Assembly: GCA_965250085.1 (NCBI GenBank)
Contig: OZ252287.1
Location: forward strand, 224,001-288,000
DNA length: 64,000 bases
Source: Candidatus Altimarinota bacterium
GTDB taxonomy: Bacteria > Patescibacteriota > Gracilibacteria > CAIRYL01
Direction of reading: 5' to 3'
The notes under the pieces are model-generated. The model was not told the DNA's origin. It did not search any database and worked only from the letters and a program-made list of their open reading frames with translations. Every line of letters begins with the position of its first letter. Position 1 is the first letter of the stretch. The position numbers and the translations under genes are program-made. Shown here in pieces: positions 34,507-40,051 of the stretch.

Positions 34507-37500
34507 ATGAAAAAAATTATCAACCTCTCCCTCCTCTGCGTTTTTTTGTTGGGAAATTCGCTCTCTGCTTCAGCACTCAGTGATATTGGCAACCATAGAT
34601 ACCAGAGAGCCATCAGTCATATGGCAAATGAAGGAATTATCAATGGATATCCAGATGATACATTTCAGCCGGAAAAAACGGTCAACCGTGCGGAAATGGT
34701 AAAAATCATGGTGGGAGCCAAAGGTGTCACCCCTGCTGTTTCAGAATATCATGATTGCTTTCCCGATGTGCGCAGAGAGTGGTTTGCTCCCTACATCTGT
34801 TATGCAAAAGCTCAAGGATGGATCATAGGATATTACGATGCAACATTTCGTCCGGACCAAACCATAAATTTTGCAGAGGCTTCCAAGATTTTTTCCGAGG
34901 TATTTGAGCTTCCCGATGTTTCGTATACGACACACACTTCAGAAGCATGGTACATCTCTTATGTTCTTCGACTCATAGAGCAAAATGCTGTCCCGCCCAC
35001 TATACAAGGTTTCCAGGGTTCTCTTCGCAGAGGAGAAACGGCAGAAACCATGTATCGACTCATGGAGAACATACTCTCTTCAGATTCTCTGAGTTATTCA
35101 GATTTGGAGATACGATCTGGTATAGGGCTCGAATACCTCAGACTTCAGGAACTCTTGCAAGAAACGCAACAGCTTTCTCAAGAACACAGTTCTCGAAATC
35201 CTATTTTACAAACCCAGGAAACCATGCTCCTTCATAAACTTGGTATGCTCGAATCACGATATTCCAGAACACTTGCGGATAATGGTCTTTCTGTAGAGCT
35301 CTCAGGAGGATTTTCATCCGATTCACGCGGTTTTAGTGATATGCGACTCCTGACCGGTGAGCGAGCGATTGATGAGAGCTTGCAGTTGGGGTCTATTGGA
35401 TCAGATAGGTCTGACGGAAGTGATCAAACATCTGCAGATATTCCGATTTCAGATATTACCTCGGTATCAATCCCCTCTCATCCTTGGGATGAAATGTTGC
35501 AGGGAAAAACATTCTCCGTTCCTGCCATTGCAAAGCTCGCACCAAAAGACATGCTGTTTGTGCATATACAAAATGCTCAAGATTTCCTGGAGCTGGAAGA
35601 TACCATGATCTCTCTTTCCAAAGCATTTGGAGATCTGTACACCTTTGGACACATGGCTGAGCTGCGGCCAAAGATGCTACGGCGGCTGGGAATACCAAAT
35701 ATGGATACATTTGTGAGTCAGATAGATGAAGGAGGGTTTGTCAGTGCCGATCTTTCTTTTACGCCCCGCACCGACTATGCCTTGATATTAAAATTCAAAA
35801 GTACAACCGCTCAATCAGCATTTACAGCACTCTTGGGAAGTAGCACTCTTTCTGAAACCATTCAGGGATACACCGTCGTTGCTACCAATGCATCAGTGCT
35901 GGAAGAAATACAAAATGCAACCAAGAGCACCTCACTTTCCCTCTCTACGCAAAAAGATTTTCACTTTGCCCTTTCCTCGGTTGAGCCTAATAGAGATGGC
36001 ATGGTGTATCTTTCTGATGCATTTATCCGCAAACTCACTGGACCCGAATATCGCATCAATGCCCGACGGAGAAATACTGCTCTGAGCACTCTGAAGATGC
36101 TTCAATATGCTTCCTTTGCCTATCATCGCATTACCGGATCATGGCCAGATTCATTAGAGCACATGCGGAATGAACGATATATATCTCTGGATACCGTTTC
36201 TGAAGTTGCCAAGTACTCTGTTGATGCTCAGGGCAGAGTGCATCACTTGGATTGGGGAACTGTTTGGGAGGTCACGCCTGTGGGTCAGGTAGAGATTCCT
36301 ACTGTCTCAGAAACGGAAAAAGATCTTTATGAGCGATTTTTGAATGAATATCAGGGATACTTTCAGGAATTCTTTGATCCCGTTGTCATTGCCTTTGATA
36401 TTGACGAAGAGATTACCTTTCATACCGTTATCCTTCCGCTTATCGAAAATAGTCAGTACAACTGGCTCAAAATATTTACCGGGGGCATGACTTCCGAGCT
36501 TTCATTTATCAGTGACCCAGATAGAGCAGGAGATGTGTATTTTGCCTCCCACTTTGCCATTGATGATCTGCTGGCAGAATTGGGAGAACAATTTCTCTTT
36601 TCCCAGCCTAAAGAGGACAGCACACTTTCGGAGGAAGAATTTATTGAAATAGTGGAACAGGAAATCGCTGAGGAATTTGATATTGATCTTCAGCCCGGAG
36701 AACGGCTTCTGGACTTTATAGGAGATGAGATTTTGGTGGGAATCAATGCCGAGAGTTTTCAATCTAATGATGCAGAAAATATCGATGCATGGCTGGGGAT
36801 CAAAGTAACGGATCAGGAAAAAGCGCACATGTTTTTTGGGAAAATTCACGAGACTTTGTCTTCATCTCCTCAAAGCTCACAAGATGCTGTGCGAATATCT
36901 GACATCTCTACCCTACGCCTCGCTACTCAAATCTACTATGCCGATACTGCCACATATCCCGCAGATTTCTCCCCACTGGAAGGAGCATATATTGCCTCCA
37001 TACCCACTGATCCCGAAACAAATGAGCCGTATCTCTATGAGCTTCCTTCTGCTGACTGCTTCCGCATTACAACCCACCTGACCGCTCAAAACAATGCACA
37101 GCGGATGAAGGACGATGGAGGAGTGGATCCCAATCTGTATGAAGTGGGAACTCTTACGGACACCTGCAATCCCCTCTTTTCTGTTACCGATCCGGCGCAA
37201 TATGAGGCAGAAGCTCCTACTCCGCCTGAAATCCCAAAAAACGAATACAAAGGCACAGAATACTTTGTCCTCTCCTTCTACGAAGATGTGTACTATACAT
37301 TTTTAGACGACACGCTCTATATGACCCTCTCCAAACAAGCTCTTTTGAAAGTTATTGATGGATATCTGTCCCCCGAAAGCTCTTTCTCCGCCCATGTGCA
37401 AACACATATAGATAATATTGGATCTGGGCAGAGTATTGCTTTTCTTTTTGATTTGATAGCTCTTTCCAATACTCGATCAAGTTCGGGAGAATATATATTC

Positions 37501-37902
37501 GCTCCCAGCAAATGGAAATCTTTTCGTGATATTGAAAATAAAACAACATACCTGAGTGAAGCACTGACCCTTGCGGAAAATCTGCCCAATTTTGATGGAA
37601 CCCTCTCCAATAGCACCTCATATTATCGCTATGCTCCCAAAACTGTCTTTGGTGCAGAATTTGCAGTGCGCGATGGCAACATATTCCTCAGTGGCAATGG
37701 ACAAGAAGTAAATCTTTCCTCTTTAGGAATATCATTTTTTAGTGAAGAAGCAGATCTGATATATGAGACGATACTAGATCTTGAAAGCATTTCTGAGAAT
37801 ATGAAGGCTCAGTTGCAGGCTCTCAAAGGATTTGCTGTTGGACTTATGTTCACAGAAGAAGGAGTAGATATCAAAATATCTTTTGGAAGCCCAAAACAGT
37901 AA
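34507..37902 (+). CDS. Large SLH-domain surface protein with an internal pilin/pseudopilin-like segment
   Basis: Signal peptide; GYPDDTFQPEKTVNRAE; CFPDVRREWFAPYICYAK; internal QDAVRISDI...IYYADTATYP...YIASIPTDP...YLY. Confidence 0.85.
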   Translation: MKKIINLSLLCVFLLGNSLSASALSDIGNHRYQRAISHMANEGIINGYPDDTFQPEKTVNRAEMVKIMVGAKGVTPAVSEYHDCFPDVRREWFAPYICYAKAQGWIIGYYDATFRPDQTINFAEASKIFSEVFELPDVSYTTHTSEAWYISYVLRLIEQNAVPPTIQGFQGSLRRGETAETMYRLMENILSSDSLSYSDLEIRSGIGLEYLRLQELLQETQQLSQEHSSRNPILQTQETMLLHKLGMLESRYSRTLADNGLSVELSGGFSSDSRGFSDMRLLTGERAIDESLQLGSIGSDRSDGSDQTSADIPISDITSVSIPSHPWDEMLQGKTFSVPAIAKLAPKDMLFVHIQNAQDFLELEDTMISLSKAFGDLYTFGHMAELRPKMLRRLGIPNMDTFVSQIDEGGFVSADLSFTPRTDYALILKFKSTTAQSAFTALLGSSTLSETIQGYTVVATNASVLEEIQNATKSTSLSLSTQKDFHFALSSVEPNRDGMVYLSDAFIRKLTGPEYRINARRRNTALSTLKMLQYASFAYHRITGSWPDSLEHMRNERYISLDTVSEVAKYSVDAQGRVHHLDWGTVWEVTPVGQVEIPTVSETEKDLYERFLNEYQGYFQEFFDPVVIAFDIDEEITFHTVILPLIENSQYNWLKIFTGGMTSELSFISDPDRAGDVYFASHFAIDDLLAELGEQFLFSQPKEDSTLSEEEFIEIVEQEIAEEFDIDLQPGERLLDFIGDEILVGINAESFQSNDAENIDAWLGIKVTDQEKAHMFFGKIHETLSSSPQSSQDAVRISDISTLRLATQIYYADTATYPADFSPLEGAYIASIPTDPETNEPYLYELPSADCFRITTHLTAQNNAQRMKDDGGVDPNLYEVGTLTDTCNPLFSVTDPAQYEAEAPTPPEIPKNEYKGTEYFVLSFYEDVYYTFLDDTLYMTLSKQALLKVIDGYLSPESSFSAHVQTHIDNIGSGQSIAFLFDLIALSNTRSSSGEYIFAPSKWKSFRDIENKTTYLSEALTLAENLPNFDGTLSNSTSYYRYAPKTVFGAEFAVRDGNIFLSGNGQEVNLSSLGISFFSEEADLIYETILDLESISENMKAQLQALKGFAVGLMFTEEGVDIKISFGSPKQ

Positions 37903-37944
37903 TTTGAGAAACATTATATCAACAAAAAAGACTTTCCAAAATTC

Positions 37945-37973
37945 TTGATTTCTCTATACGAAATCGATACTAT
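37945..37973 (+). promoter_or_regulatory. Sigma70-type promoter upstream of the tRNA-Gly pseudocopy, GIY-YIG gene and tRNA-Gly
   Basis: TTGATT-17 nt-TACTAT, 15 nt before the first tRNA-like sequence. Confidence 0.6.
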
Positions 37974-37988
37974 TTCCAGCGCTTTTGA

Positions 37989-38055
37989 GCGAGTATAGTA
38001 CAGTGGCTAGTACACGACCTTGTCCCGCACTGCGGGATTGAGACATGGGTTTGAT
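37989..38055 (+). pseudogene. Degenerate tRNA-Gly copy with the anticodon region replaced by a palindrome
   Basis: First 34 nt identical to the tRNA at 38354; CCATGG replaced by TCCCGCACTGCGGGA; then TTGAGACATGGGTTTGAT; no 3' acceptor strand. Confidence 0.9.
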
Positions 38056-38074
38056 GATTTGTTTCTAGTTTAAT

Positions 38075-38350
38075 ATGAGTTATTCGGTATACATACTCCA
38101 GAGCAAGACAATCGGAAGAAGATATATAGGATATACTGAGGATGTAGAGAAGCGATTAGAACAACACAATTTAGGACTCAATACTTCAACCAGAAATTAC
38201 GGACCATGGAAAATAATCTATTTAGAAAAAGGATTTGAAACAAGGCAGAAAGCACTAAAAAGAGAAAAAGAAATCAAAAAGATGAAAGGTGGTATTCAAT
38301 TAAAAGATCTTTTACATCAATACTCTTCGAAGATAAAAAACTCACGATGA
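38075..38350 (+). CDS. Stand-alone GIY-YIG nuclease (YhbQ/UPF0213-like)
   Basis: YSVYILQS..RRYIGYTEDVEKRLEQHN...T.NYGPW....E...ALKREKEIK. Confidence 0.93.
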   Translation: MSYSVYILQSKTIGRRYIGYTEDVEKRLEQHNLGLNTSTRNYGPWKIIYLEKGFETRQKALKREKEIKKMKGGIQLKDLLHQYSSKIKNSR

Positions 38351-38353
38351 TAT

Positions 38354-38428
38354 GCGAGTATAGTACAGTGGCTAGTACACGACCTTGCCATGGTTGAGAC
38401 ACGGGTTCGATTCCCGTTACTCGCTCCA
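38354..38428 (+). tRNA. tRNA-Gly(GCC)
   Basis: GCGAGTA...CGACCTT-GCC-ATGGTTG...GGTTCGATTCCCGT-TACTCGC-T-CCA; complete cloverleaf. Confidence 0.97.
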
Positions 38429-39637
38429 GATAGGAATAACCTTCGAAAGGTTTGCCTTTTTCATTTTATATAAGCCATTTTTAAGAGGTTCGAGCGAGCC
38501 GAGAGCTTTTTCTGTGTCTTTCATCCCTTTTTGAATGGAAACGAATGGTTTATTCAGTTCCATAAACAATTTCTTGTCTTGGAGTAAAAAGTTCGAGCCA
38601 AGAGCAGAAAAAATTCTTCGTTTTGTTTGAAGGTCTCCTTTTTCAAATTCTACGCGGGCGTGTTGGGCAAAATTGAATATCTTTTCTATTTTGTTAAGCC
38701 AATTATTTTTCTCTGTGTTGTATGAGTTAATCCGTTGATTTAATTTTCTTTGTTCCTTTTCAAAGTTCTTCTTATGTTGCTTGTAAGTTTCGTCTGAAAT
38801 AACTCCTTTAAGAAGTTTTTGAAGAAGTGTCTCAATCATTACTTCATTCTCGTTGTATCGCTTTTGTAATTGAGTACGCTTTACGACGAACTCTTTTGTC
38901 TCTTGCTTTGACCGTTTACGCAACTCCTTTGCAAACCATTCAGCAAATGCTTTTGGAATTTGAATAGCATTCAGCACTTTCTCTATTTGTTTCTCAAGAT
39001 CTTTTACCTGAAGATATTTTTGACCGCACTTAATAGTAGGATTTTTTTTGGTACAACGAAGATAATGGTAAATACGCACTCTACCATCTCCCTTATTTAC
39101 TTTTCGTTTTGGTGGTTCTTCCGTAACCATACATCCACATTCAGCACACCTAATTAGACCATTGAAAGCGTGTTCATACTTATTTTTTCTAGCTTTTCCT
39201 TTTCTTCCGAGAATTATTTGTGCCTGATCAAAATCTTCCAGACTTATTATTGAAGTATGGTTTCCGTGCTTTATTTCTCCGTGCCAGTCATAAAATCCTG
39301 TATAGAAGAGATTATTGAATATCGCATACCAGGTACTCAAAGAAACTGGTGCGGATCTTCGAGTTCTTAATCCTTCTTCGTGTGCTAGTTCTTTTATCTT
39401 GGATACTGAAAAATTACCTGTTAATAGCCTTTGCCAGGCAGTTCGAAGGTGAGGGAGTCTTTCAGGATTATCCTTTACTTCCTTTATCTTATTTCTACGA
39501 GCTCTTTCTTTTTGAAATTTCTTCCAGGGAATCAGCGGCTTCTTGTCTTCACCAATAGGGATTACGGAGTATCCTGATTTTTCATAATTTAAAGCAGCTT
39601 TGAGTACTTCATTTACGTTTTTGTGATGATTGTTCAT
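38417..39637 (-). pseudogene. Chimeric ORF: Prim-Pol N-terminal fragment fused to the recombinase, zinc-ribbon and coiled-coil part of a large serine recombinase
   Basis: GYSVIPIGEDKKPLIPWKKFQ (prim-pol), then NNLFYTG...GNHTSII..EDFDQAQ, GLIRCAECG and YLRC; no catalytic YxRxS resolvase domain; stop codon lies inside tRNA-Gly. Confidence 0.78.
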
Positions 39638-39779
39638 TTACTTCATGATTAAAGATGTATTGGAATAGGCTGAGAATTCTTTCGGCACTAGCTTCTGCTT
39701 CCCTTTCGGTAATTTCTTCACCGAACTCAGCAAAATGTATTTGTTGATACTCCCTAATTGATTCTGGTGACAGTTTCAT
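39609..39779 (-). CDS. Small island-associated hypothetical protein (56 aa)
   Basis: Manual translation MKLSPESIREYQQIHFAEFGEEITEREAEASAERILSLF...; ATGA overlap with the upstream SpoVG-like gene. Confidence 0.65.
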   Translation of the reverse strand: MKLSPESIREYQQIHFAEFGEEITEREAEASAERILSLFQYIFNHEVNEQSSQKRK

Positions 39780-40051
39780 AAGGGATAATTAGTTATGTCT
39801 TTAACTTTCCTAAAAACAACCTCTTCAATCTCTTTCGACAAATCCTTATTCAGCGGATGAAAGAAGTTGATATGATGTTCTCCAATTTTCTTAGTCGGAT
39901 ATGTCAGCCTTAATCCTTCTCCATCTAAGCGCGTATGCACTCCAATCGATCCAAGATAGAGCTTGTTATCAAATACCAAGCTGGCAAAAGCTATGAGACC
40001 GTTCTTTGGTTTTATAGGTACTATTTCAACTTCGGTTATTACGTTGCTCAT
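39776..40051 (-). CDS. SpoVG-family nucleic acid-binding protein
   Basis: ITEVEI...GLIAFASLVFDNKLYLGSIGV...LTYPTKK...FFHPLN. Confidence 0.82.
   Translation of the reverse strand: MSNVITEVEIVPIKPKNGLIAFASLVFDNKLYLGSIGVHTRLDGEGLRLTYPTKKIGEHHINFFHPLNKDLSKEIEEVVFRKVKDITNYPL

Follow-up and report, generated by a model that had tools for sequence, protein, structure and literature searches.

A GIY-YIG nuclease gene between a hairpin-interrupted partial copy and an intact copy of tRNA-Gly(GCC): a probable selfish cassette of bacterial tRNA genes

Why should a small nuclease gene sit between two copies of the same tRNA gene, one of them interrupted by a perfect hairpin? This question is raised by a locus at positions 37945-38428 of the window, i.e., the whole 64-kb stretch of DNA analysed here (64,000 nucleotides (nt); contig OZ252287.1, positions 224,001 to 288,000, assembly GCA_965250085.1) from Candidatus Altimarinota bacterium, a member of Gracilibacteria. 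The locus is a cassette of three parts, namely the gene of a minimal, Slx1-like GIY-YIG nuclease, a partial copy of the host tRNA that is interrupted by a hairpin (hereafter pseudo-copy), and a regenerated intact tRNA. Considering its anatomy, its recurrence, the conservation of catalytic residues, the family to which the hairpin belongs, the empty and relic sites in relatives, and the concordance between nuclease clades and tRNA species, we regard it as probable, with considerable room for doubt, that positions 37989-38428 hold one copy of a widespread selfish cassette, which is addressed to its cognate tRNA by homology and keeps that tRNA intact via a partial duplication.

The genome that contains the window is a single contig of 1.37 Mb with 40 tRNA genes, in which tRNA-Gly(GCC) occurs once, and this gene is one of the two tRNA genes in the window (tRNA genes were called by ARAGORN, with Infernal and the Rfam tRNA model run alongside). 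All parts of the locus are on the plus strand. A candidate native tRNA promoter (TTGATT, 17 nt, TACTAT; 8 of 12 consensus positions) and leader (37945-37973) now lie 5' of the pseudo-copy, whose first segment (37989-38022) corresponds to tRNA positions 1-34 and is identical to the intact gene at 34/34 positions. In place of the following CCATGG, and with the anticodon removed, stands a 15-nt perfect palindrome (38023-38037), which can be drawn as 7-base-pair (bp) arms around one base or as a hairpin of 6 bp with a 3-nt loop, and which belongs to a hairpin family of the form TCCCG...CGGGA. The second segment of 18 nt (38038-38055; tRNA positions 41 to ~57) has two mismatches, is 93% identical over tRNA positions 41-54 and stops in the T-loop. 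Next come a spacer or 5' untranslated region (UTR) of 19 nt before the ATG (38056-38074), an open reading frame (ORF) of 91 amino acids (aa) that encodes a GIY-YIG protein of the Slx1/UPF0213 lineage (38075-38350; Pfam PF01541), and, after a gap of 3 nt from its stop codon, the intact tRNA-Gly(GCC), the sole gene for that tRNA in the genome (38354-38428; ARAGORN; 66.4 bits with the Rfam tRNA model). An earlier note, made from the sequence alone, had described this layout (the 34-nt copy, the palindrome for CCATGG, the break-off in the T-loop, the 91-aa GIY-YIG gene, and the 3-nt gap), and it held in every detail.

The two members of the repeat pair, i.e., the 34-mer and the intact tRNA-Gly, are spaced by 365 nt. 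Because tRNA-Gly(GCC) has no match outside tRNA genes in the 1.37 Mb of the genome other than the 34-mer (E 3e-13) and the palindrome is unique within the window (one match at up to two mismatches, 0.10 expected), a chance origin of the duplication is excluded. The palindrome is one of just three GC-rich perfect hairpins in the 64 kb, and folded as DNA it reaches -6.4 kcal/mol (z = -2.9). The 3' acceptor strand is missing from the pseudo-copy, and Infernal reports no tRNA there at E values up to 1. A search of Rfam (E up to 1) covering window positions 37000-39500 and eight cassette loci returned only intact tRNAs and chance-level matches; no family matched the hairpin, the double hairpin described below or the pseudo-copy, and there was no intron or ribozyme match.

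Which of the two copies occupies the original position? A promoter ahead of the pseudo-copy had been noted from the sequence, and this part of the description stands only in a qualified form: the TTGATT/TACTAT site was not listed by a consensus promoter scan with a threshold of 9/12 positions, and the leader that contains it aligns, hexamer included, with the leader of an empty-site tRNA-Gly(GCC) in a relative (L037; G001). Comparable hexamers are found ~25 nt upstream of tRNA-Gly in relatives. The sequence upstream of the intact copy shows no alignment with the empty-site leader of G001. Since only the upstream region of the pseudo-copy aligns in this way, the pseudo-copy is the original 5' part of the gene, still attached to its leader, with the insert lying inside the old gene. 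With the native leader in front of the pseudo-copy, it is plausible that the cassette is expressed from the tRNA promoter, as had also been suggested. Among the five public sequencing runs listed, from two studies, none was of RNA. Both cassette junctions are reproduced without a differing letter in contigs of four public runs from one sample (possibly the source sample of the assembly), one 391-nt piece covering 37993-38383; considering that other genomes show the same layout as well, an assembly artefact is unlikely.

Homologous loci were collected from one genome per species of GTDB with an alignment of four cassette proteins as the query, and the best 80 of 272 relatives were examined. According to their record titles, these 80 loci come from Peribacteria, Gracilibacteria, many Patescibacteria, Chitinophagaceae, Pedobacter, Bacteroidales, Ignavibacteria, Omnitrophota, and some metagenome-assembled genomes labelled Gammaproteobacteria. 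A co-oriented tRNA gene lies within 120 nt at 73 of the 80 loci (0.7% of the window's genome is that close to a tRNA), and many tRNA species are involved (Gly, Pro, Met, Ser, Asn, Phe, Thr, Tyr, Ile, Ala, Lys, and Asp). On the opposite side of the ORF, 58/80 loci carry a partial copy of the adjoining tRNA, mostly 100% identical to it, and the pieces match their own neighbouring tRNA though the tRNAs themselves vary between genomes. The cassettes occur in two forms: when the tRNA is 3' of the ORF, the far piece is a 5' part of the tRNA, and when the tRNA is 5' of the ORF, the far piece is a 3' part. In both orientations the hairpin is found at the same anticodon position. Among the 57 cassettes with the ORF-then-tRNA orientation, there are 22 in which the ORF runs into the following tRNA and has its stop codon inside it.

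Hairpins accompany most of these pseudo-copies. Within 150 nt of the ORF on the side opposite the tRNA, GC-rich perfect hairpins were detected in 57/73 cassettes (6.9 per kb, vs 0.88 per kb in the rest of the loci), and hairpins of the TCCCG...CGGGA form with a stem of at least 6 bp in 35/73 (3.5 vs 0.25 per kb elsewhere). The unpaired middle of the latter is 3 nt long in 26 of 37 cases (range 0-5). Hairpins replace or split the D-loop, the anticodon arm or the T-loop of the tRNA pieces. Many Ser, Tyr, and Thr cassettes of Patescibacteria and Ignavibacteria have a double hairpin of conserved sequence in the anticodon loop, and the single hairpin in the window corresponds to its second member. 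Pairing is retained through double changes between loci (TCCCGT/ACGGGA, TTCCGCC/GGCGGAA, and TGCCGAT/ATCGGCA).

Two loci have more unusual tRNA-like sequences. At L125:1099-1174, ARAGORN called a tRNA-Pro(CGG) whose D-arm is replaced by a GC hairpin, which may be a pseudo-copy or an unusual functional tRNA. At L018:1730-1870 (G026), there is a near-complete second copy of tRNA-Thr, whose D-loop and T-loop are enlarged by insertions (34 and 35 nt).

A closer look at relatives was taken with 41 genomes of the same class as the window's genome, in which the flanks of all homologue matches were fetched. GIY-YIG homologues are present in 30 of them, and the resulting 80 ORFs form three groups on a quick maximum-likelihood tree (99 columns; many forks unresolved). 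The clade that includes the window protein has 36 members, 27 of which have a co-oriented tRNA within 180 nt; another three are internal to tandem arrays. A group of 18, which includes the other four of the six GIY-YIG paralogues in the window's genome, has a loose link to tRNA genes (6/18). None of the 26 ORFs in the sister clade (support of 100 in the Shimodaira-Hasegawa-like approximate likelihood ratio test) has a tRNA neighbour, and this clade looks like a housekeeping UPF0213 gene. Within the clade of 36, sub-clades follow tRNA identity across genomes (Gly-GCC, Ser-GGA, Met, Pro-TGG, Phe, and Asn). Mapped on the tree, tRNA identity changes 17 times (33 rows and 17 labels, the minimum possible being 16), and in 500 label shuffles the mean was 25.9 and the minimum 23, so that none reached 17; because related genomes are not independent, this concordance indicates a tight association and not its cause. 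The Phe-specific nuclease clade contains both cassette orientations. The distribution of the cassettes among relatives is patchy. They persist at order and class depth with their catalytic residues intact.

Some relatives have uninterrupted sites. The tRNA-Gly(GCC) gene is free of a cassette at six loci (L037, L039-L042, and L045). In G004, which belongs to the same family as the window's genome, the pseudo-copy and an identical hairpin are found at the same position, followed by a ~30-nt spacer that can partly be aligned with the 5' UTR at 38056-38074, and there is no ORF; in an alignment of four genomes, no other non-coding block is as well conserved as the hairpin. A second case is provided by a genus in which the tRNA-Met site is empty in G013 and filled in G017 and G019. 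Thus, polymorphism for presence and absence at one conserved site exists among relatives for both tRNA-Gly(GCC) and tRNA-Met. Further variation comes from repeated events: the cassette unit forms tandem arrays at L010, L012, L016, and L017, which multiply pseudo-copies and not functional tRNAs, and the tRNA-Phe gene at L076 has been hit twice, with an ORF-less relic upstream and a full cassette downstream. The length of the duplication ranges from 12 to ~90 nt across cases, and at L013 and L107 it takes in 24-25 nt of the upstream flank. The check proposed in the earlier note, i.e., whether pseudo-copies with hairpins in place of tRNA parts recur beside such nucleases at different tRNA species, and a comparison with empty loci of relatives, thus had a positive outcome in the survey and at these sites.

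Short inserts and repeats were also observed at the same tRNAs. At L043, L044, and L046, and at L007:1815-1900, a hairpin insert of 60-100 nt directly follows tRNA-Gly(GCC) and is itself followed by a copy of the last 13 nt of the tRNA, which amounts to a miniature duplication without an ORF that resembles an attachment (att) site. A ~30-nt repeat upstream of the tRNA-Met cassette (L008:1212-1245) occurs at ~6 to 10 further loci in each of G013, G017, and G019, with 87-100% identity.

The genome of the window itself contains a second cassette, at tRNA-Pro(TGG), which consists of a 5' copy of tRNA-Pro whose inner anticodon arm is swapped for a 15-nt TCC...GGA hairpin, a 96-aa GIY-YIG ORF, and then directly the intact tRNA. 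It had been suggested that short hairpins of the same kind are found elsewhere in the window; this was not the case, no further member being found in the 64 kb, and the family proved to be genome-wide instead, with 18 members, 11 of which lie within 300 nt of a tRNA gene. Viewed from the tRNA side, 9 of the 40 tRNA genes have a family hairpin within ~170 nt, a distance that covers ~1% of the genome. ORF-less relics with hairpins are present at three more tRNAs, with partial copies of tRNA-Met (C1:500560-500625), tRNA-Leu(GAG) (C1:888660-888705), and tRNA-Arg(TCT) (C1:44383-44555) flanked by direct repeats of 15, 17, and 19 nt, respectively. A hairpin insert at a non-tRNA site (C1:982879-982972) has a 12-nt direct repeat. 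Including one in the trailer of a tRNA-Ser, these ORF-less inserts at tRNA-Arg, tRNA-Met, tRNA-Leu(GAG), tRNA-Ser, and the non-tRNA site measure ~70-155 nt and have direct repeats of 12-19 nt.

The paralogues that are loosely linked to tRNA genes have a conserved leader of their own, in which an inverted repeat around a variable core is followed by a second motif with a hairpin (C1:940115-940300 (L002), 612470-612726, and 1364490-1364610; also L038, downstream of tRNA-Gly). The leader at L002 contains four tandem repeats of ~19 nt. Partial versions of this leader that lack an ORF occur immediately 3' of tRNA-Ser(GCT) and tRNA-Gly(TCC) and, in G004, 3' of tRNA-Gly(GCC).

What kind of nuclease does the cassette encode? 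The 91-aa ORF matches Pfam GIY-YIG (PF01541) with 57.7 bits (cut-off 22.6; E 1.4e-15); no other Pfam domain was matched in it, and no NCBIfam family matches it. All of 20 cassette proteins share Y6, Y17, G19, R27, H31, E64, and K68 (window numbering), and at least 90% of them have N32; the two Tyr, the Arg, the His/Asn, and the Glu are the residues to which the literature on the family assigns catalytic roles. A profile search of PDB sequences gave the UPF0213 proteins 1zg2 (BH0048, 2e-18) and 1ywl (EF2693, 2e-16) as best matches, followed by SLX1 (3.5e-10 to 9e-8) and, far weaker, I-TevI (0.0036). The AlphaFold2 model (predicted local distance difference test 92.9) comprises only the catalytic core and one C-terminal helix, and with Foldseek this model is closest to Slx1 nuclease domains (TMq 0.63-0.65, root-mean-square deviation ~2 A), with lower values for I-TevI (0.48-0.49) and UvrC (0.44-0.47). 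Judged from profiles and the predicted fold, the protein is a minimal domain of the Slx1/UPF0213 type and not a homing nuclease of the I-TevI/SegB type. In phages it is rare, tblastn with the nuclease giving six weak matches among 50,697 phage records.

From these observations we infer nuclease activity, its substrate, the route of recombination, and transcription as follows. The ancestral locus would have consisted of leader, tRNA, and trailer; its leader-joined 5' part would have become the pseudo-copy, with the anticodon replaced by the hairpin, and a second 5' copy beside the ORF would complete the functional tRNA gene. The cassette would move and persist by homologous recombination within the tRNA sequence, possible routes being double crossover, gene conversion after a break, and Campbell-type integration and excision of a small circle, where the small circle or linear fragment would comprise the hairpin-interrupted tRNA copy and the ORF. 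A crossover 5' of the hairpin would give the order pseudo-copy, ORF, tRNA, and one 3' of the hairpin the order tRNA, ORF, pseudo-copy; the reverse event would restore a clean site and unequal events would give arrays. The choice of target would lie in the tRNA homology arms and not in the 91-aa protein, and we propose the arms as the address because a nuclease of this small size could not recognise a sequence specific to one tRNA. Addressing by arms would lock a cassette lineage to one tRNA species, which would account for the concordance between clades and tRNAs. The nuclease, in turn, might supply breaks or nicks, as Slx1 and SegB suggest by analogy, at a generic structure that is either an arm of the tRNA gene or the conserved hairpin (cruciform); these breaks could stimulate recombination and also yield tandem amplification. 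The ORF and the essential tRNA would be co-transcribed from the tRNA promoter. Candidate roles of the hairpin are a structural handle for the nuclease, a block against recombination or conversion between the two repeats, the destruction of the anticodon of the spare copy, and an independent small element.

Several points weigh against such a selfish cassette. Its movement is deduced from sequence comparison and was not observed; of the earlier proposal of a selfish unit at tRNA genes, it is the recurrence, the enrichment at tRNAs, and the empty and relic sites that are supported. The recognition of the hairpin by the nuclease is a proposal, and the length of the hairpin middle leaves both a hairpin and a duplex palindrome possible. 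Since the protein has no DNA-binding domain, sequence-specific cleavage of the I-TevI or SegB kind is unlikely. Moreover, the filled allele fully retains the intact tRNA (at L013 and L107 together with the upstream flank), so that the immunity usual for a filled homing site seems to be lacking. The concordance between nuclease clades and tRNA species fits homing and vertical inheritance of ancient insertions alike. Bacteroidota Pro(CGG) cassettes have no hairpin, and, judging from the ORF-less inserts with direct repeats of 12-19 nt, the hairpin element could move on its own. The contigs of the four runs contained neither an empty allele nor an excision joint at the cassette, which counts against it weakly, as contigs drop rare variants and this absence says little either way. 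Finally, ARAGORN sometimes labels hairpin-bearing pseudo-copies as tRNAs (L076 and L125), so that a few of the 'intact' and upstream or downstream assignments behind the counts from the related genomes and the GTDB loci may be wrong.

Could the hairpin, rather than the cassette, be the primary mobile unit? It would then be a palindrome similar to a miniature inverted-repeat transposable element that enters the hairpin loops of tRNA genes with long target duplications, and the GIY-YIG protein would be the transposase-like nuclease of 'autonomous' copies or mere cargo. The hairpins do sit in or replace the D-loop, anticodon arm, or T-loop, i.e., places where a tRNA gene forms hairpins by nature, and the ORF-less inserts (including the one at a non-tRNA site), the preference of the family for the vicinity of tRNA genes, and the L076 pseudo-copy, which shows a hairpin together with a tandem duplication of 79 nt but no remnant of an ORF, all fit this idea; duplication of the upstream flank at L013 and L107 is what a long staggered cut with fill-in would be expected to leave. 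However, the ORF-less cases may equally be cassettes that have lost their ORF, as the partial alignment of the G004 spacer with the 5' UTR in the window suggests, and duplications of such variable length differ from the fixed target duplications of known transposases. In addition, cassettes without a hairpin exist, and we know of no GIY-YIG DNA transposase. We hold this explanation to be unlikely. Distinctly unlikely, in our judgement, is a domesticated module that serves the host, i.e., a structure-specific nuclease for the maintenance of tRNA genes or for their SegB-like amplification (for example, against tRNA-targeting toxins), with the partial duplications being scars of breaks. Tandem arrays and the persistence of catalytically intact copies at order and class depth would be understandable in this case, and two reports point in the same direction, in that phage T6 benefits adaptively when SegB amplifies tRNA genes (PMC13096335) and prokaryotic Slx1-like proteins were held to be mostly vertically inherited in a 2006 survey (PMC1564403). 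Nevertheless, presence is patchy (no homologue was detected in 11 of the 41 related genomes) and a single genus can include empty sites, the ORF has been lost repeatedly with relics left behind, the arrays amplify pseudo-copies rather than functional tRNAs, and it is the separate clade of 26 ORFs never adjacent to tRNAs that looks like the housekeeping copy.

A function at the RNA level, with the pseudo-tRNA and hairpin regulating in cis as a leader, guiding the nuclease or acting as an antitoxin-like RNA, draws on the conservation of the stem sequence across phyla with pairing kept through double changes, and on the place of the hairpin next to tRNA-derived sequence in the presumed 5' UTR, where it is the dominant element in the centroid fold of the leader. 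It is nonetheless highly improbable: the hairpin is downstream of the ORF in cassettes with the order tRNA, ORF, pseudo-copy, the complete leader of the cassette is not more structured than its shuffled versions (z = 0.14), no Rfam family was matched, the GIY-YIG core of 85-91 aa has no RNA-binding module, and perfect palindromes are equally expected for an element that acts at the DNA level. Close to negligible is the last explanation, in which the duplication is an att remnant of a neighbouring integrase-type element or an artefact of assembly. A candidate for such a neighbour exists, as a 406-aa ORF with Recombinase and zinc-ribbon domains on the minus strand (38417-39637) overlaps the 3' end of the tRNA, but it has no catalytic resolvase domain and lies on the other side of the tRNA. 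The repeated sequence comes from the 5' part of the tRNA, and the GIY-YIG ORF is all that lies between its copies; moreover, the same layout is seen at 58/80 loci of other genomes and both junctions are present in the contigs of the four runs. Some narrower possibilities were rejected as well. An att repeat of an integrase within the locus is ruled out by the lack of a recombinase gene between the repeats, and a tRNA intron (group I or bulge-helix-bulge) by the presence of positions 1-34 in both copies, both in agreement with the earlier note. The hairpin is not followed by a T-run as a terminator would be, and a terminator there is unlikely considering that the sole tRNA-Gly(GCC) lies downstream of it and the candidate promoter upstream of the pseudo-copy. 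Palindromes generated from local sequence in the manner of P-nucleotides were dismissed because the arms are alike between loci and are not derived from the tRNA.

The neighbourhood of the locus and the rest of the genome offer some additional observations. The stop of the 406-aa ORF overlaps the last 12 nt of tRNA-Gly; its Recombinase and zinc-ribbon domains are accompanied by a partial match to XisF, the resolvase catalytic domain is absent, and recombinase models have no counterpart of its first ~60 residues. It has the appearance of a degraded end of an integrative element that had used the 3' side of tRNA-Gly(GCC). Beyond it, within 39609-40051, lies a SpoVG-like ORF at 39776-40051. Elsewhere, a repeat of at least 280 nt in two copies (C1:333500-333780 and 612080-612360) holds a sequence similar to the 3' part of tRNA-Thr(CGT) (91% over 34 nt), and one of the copies is located ~500 nt upstream of a GIY-YIG paralogue. 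A separate family of hairpins with the arms TCCCCCTT and AAGGGGGA has 13 copies in the genome (e.g., C1:13466, 42511, 73342, and 294157), mostly not near tRNA genes (two within ~760 nt), and these may be terminators.

A more far-reaching version of the selfish cassette is tentative, and we consider it doubtful. The cassettes may represent an unrecognised class of bacterial mobile elements with addressing by nucleic acid, in which the tRNA arms pick the target by homology, the conserved single or double TCCCG...CGGGA hairpin is the handle for a bare Slx1-like structure-specific nuclease of 85-91 aa, and the ORF-less inserts are non-autonomous relatives. In its boldest form, a transcript of the hairpin and half-tRNA would guide the nuclease to the tRNA gene.

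If the selfish cassette is real, part of the uncharacterised UPF0213 or bacterial Slx1-like family would gain a concrete biological role, and a lineage thought to consist of vertically inherited repair proteins would include selfish members. It would also account for the tRNA pseudo-fragments and GC hairpins around tRNA genes, which confuse tRNA finders. The pattern spans several phyla and touches essential single-copy genes in minimal genomes; since a cassette of ~330 nt is carried within single-copy essential tRNA genes of very small genomes and leaves these genes functional, it offers a natural model of 'safe-harbour' insertion in compact form. Should the hairpin be the handle of the nuclease, the cassette would in addition be a minimal structure-directed nuclease system.

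The nearest known analogue is SegB of phages T4/T6, which belongs to the I-TevI/Seg lineage and has a C-terminal DNA-binding part; this architecture (N-terminal GIY-YIG and C-terminal DNA-binding region) is not that of the 91-aa ORF, which is a bare Slx1/UPF0213 domain (E 3.5e-10 for Slx1 vs 0.0036 for I-TevI). SegB of T4 is a GIY-YIG homing endonuclease in a tRNA cluster with a recognition site that includes a T-stem-loop motif (PMC2330249), and the pseudo-copy in the window stops in the T-loop. It cuts inside tRNA genes, drives recombination-dependent segmental amplification, and is statistically associated with tRNAs in phages (PMC13096335). Both systems have a GIY-YIG gene embedded among tRNA genes, and SegB promotes its own inheritance and the tandem amplification of segB-plus-tRNA units (PMC2330249; PMC13096335), just as tandem arrays occur among the cassettes. 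In contrast, SegB is a phage gene, while the cassette is chromosomal and its protein is rare in phages; SegB sits between tRNA genes, while the hairpin-interrupted partial copy of a split and restored tRNA is a property of the cassette that does not appear in the available portions of the SegB accounts.

By profile and fold, the cassette nuclease belongs to the same family as the UPF0213 proteins (1zg2 BH0048 and 1ywl EF2693) and eukaryotic Slx1, which requires Slx4 and carries a RING domain. The 2006 survey treats prokaryotic Slx1-like proteins as minimal stand-alone GIY-YIG cores without the C-terminal Asn region and mostly as vertically inherited repair proteins; the part available is silent on tRNA neighbourhood, the word 'tRNA' being used three times, for a TrmH fusion or in references (PMC1564403). 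The tRNA-embedded clade is distinct from the UPF0213-like clade of 26 ORFs that never adjoin a tRNA. Integrative elements and prophages at tRNA genes, and the tRNA-disruption model proposed for archaea, resemble the cassette in that the tRNA stays functional thanks to a replacement segment brought by the element, while what it displaces persists as a partial direct repeat. In Caldiarchaeum, for instance, a 5' tRNA fragment is located 1.8 kb upstream of the gene, with a recombinase-encoding element in between (PMC3293823). The cassette differs from such elements in that there is no integrase within the repeat interval, the whole insert is ~330 nt long, either the 5' or the 3' part of the tRNA may be duplicated, and the displaced copy bears a conserved hairpin. 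In fungal mitochondria, GIY-YIG ORFs insert at the ends of genes and bring a replacement segment, so that a partial duplicate of the gene is left where the original piece was displaced. Mobile GC-rich elements with double hairpins are also found there, and many Patescibacteria cassettes likewise have a double hairpin, in the anticodon loop. These belong to another genetic system with protein-coding host genes, and their likeness to the cassettes is by description only. In the literature searched (few subscription journals and no supplements), we found no bacterial chromosomal GIY-YIG genes with flanking partial tRNA duplications or hairpin-bearing pseudo-tRNAs. We count the cassettes among the free-standing nuclease genes that exploit tRNA genes; from SegB they differ by lineage, size, chromosomal residence, and the hairpin-bearing copy.

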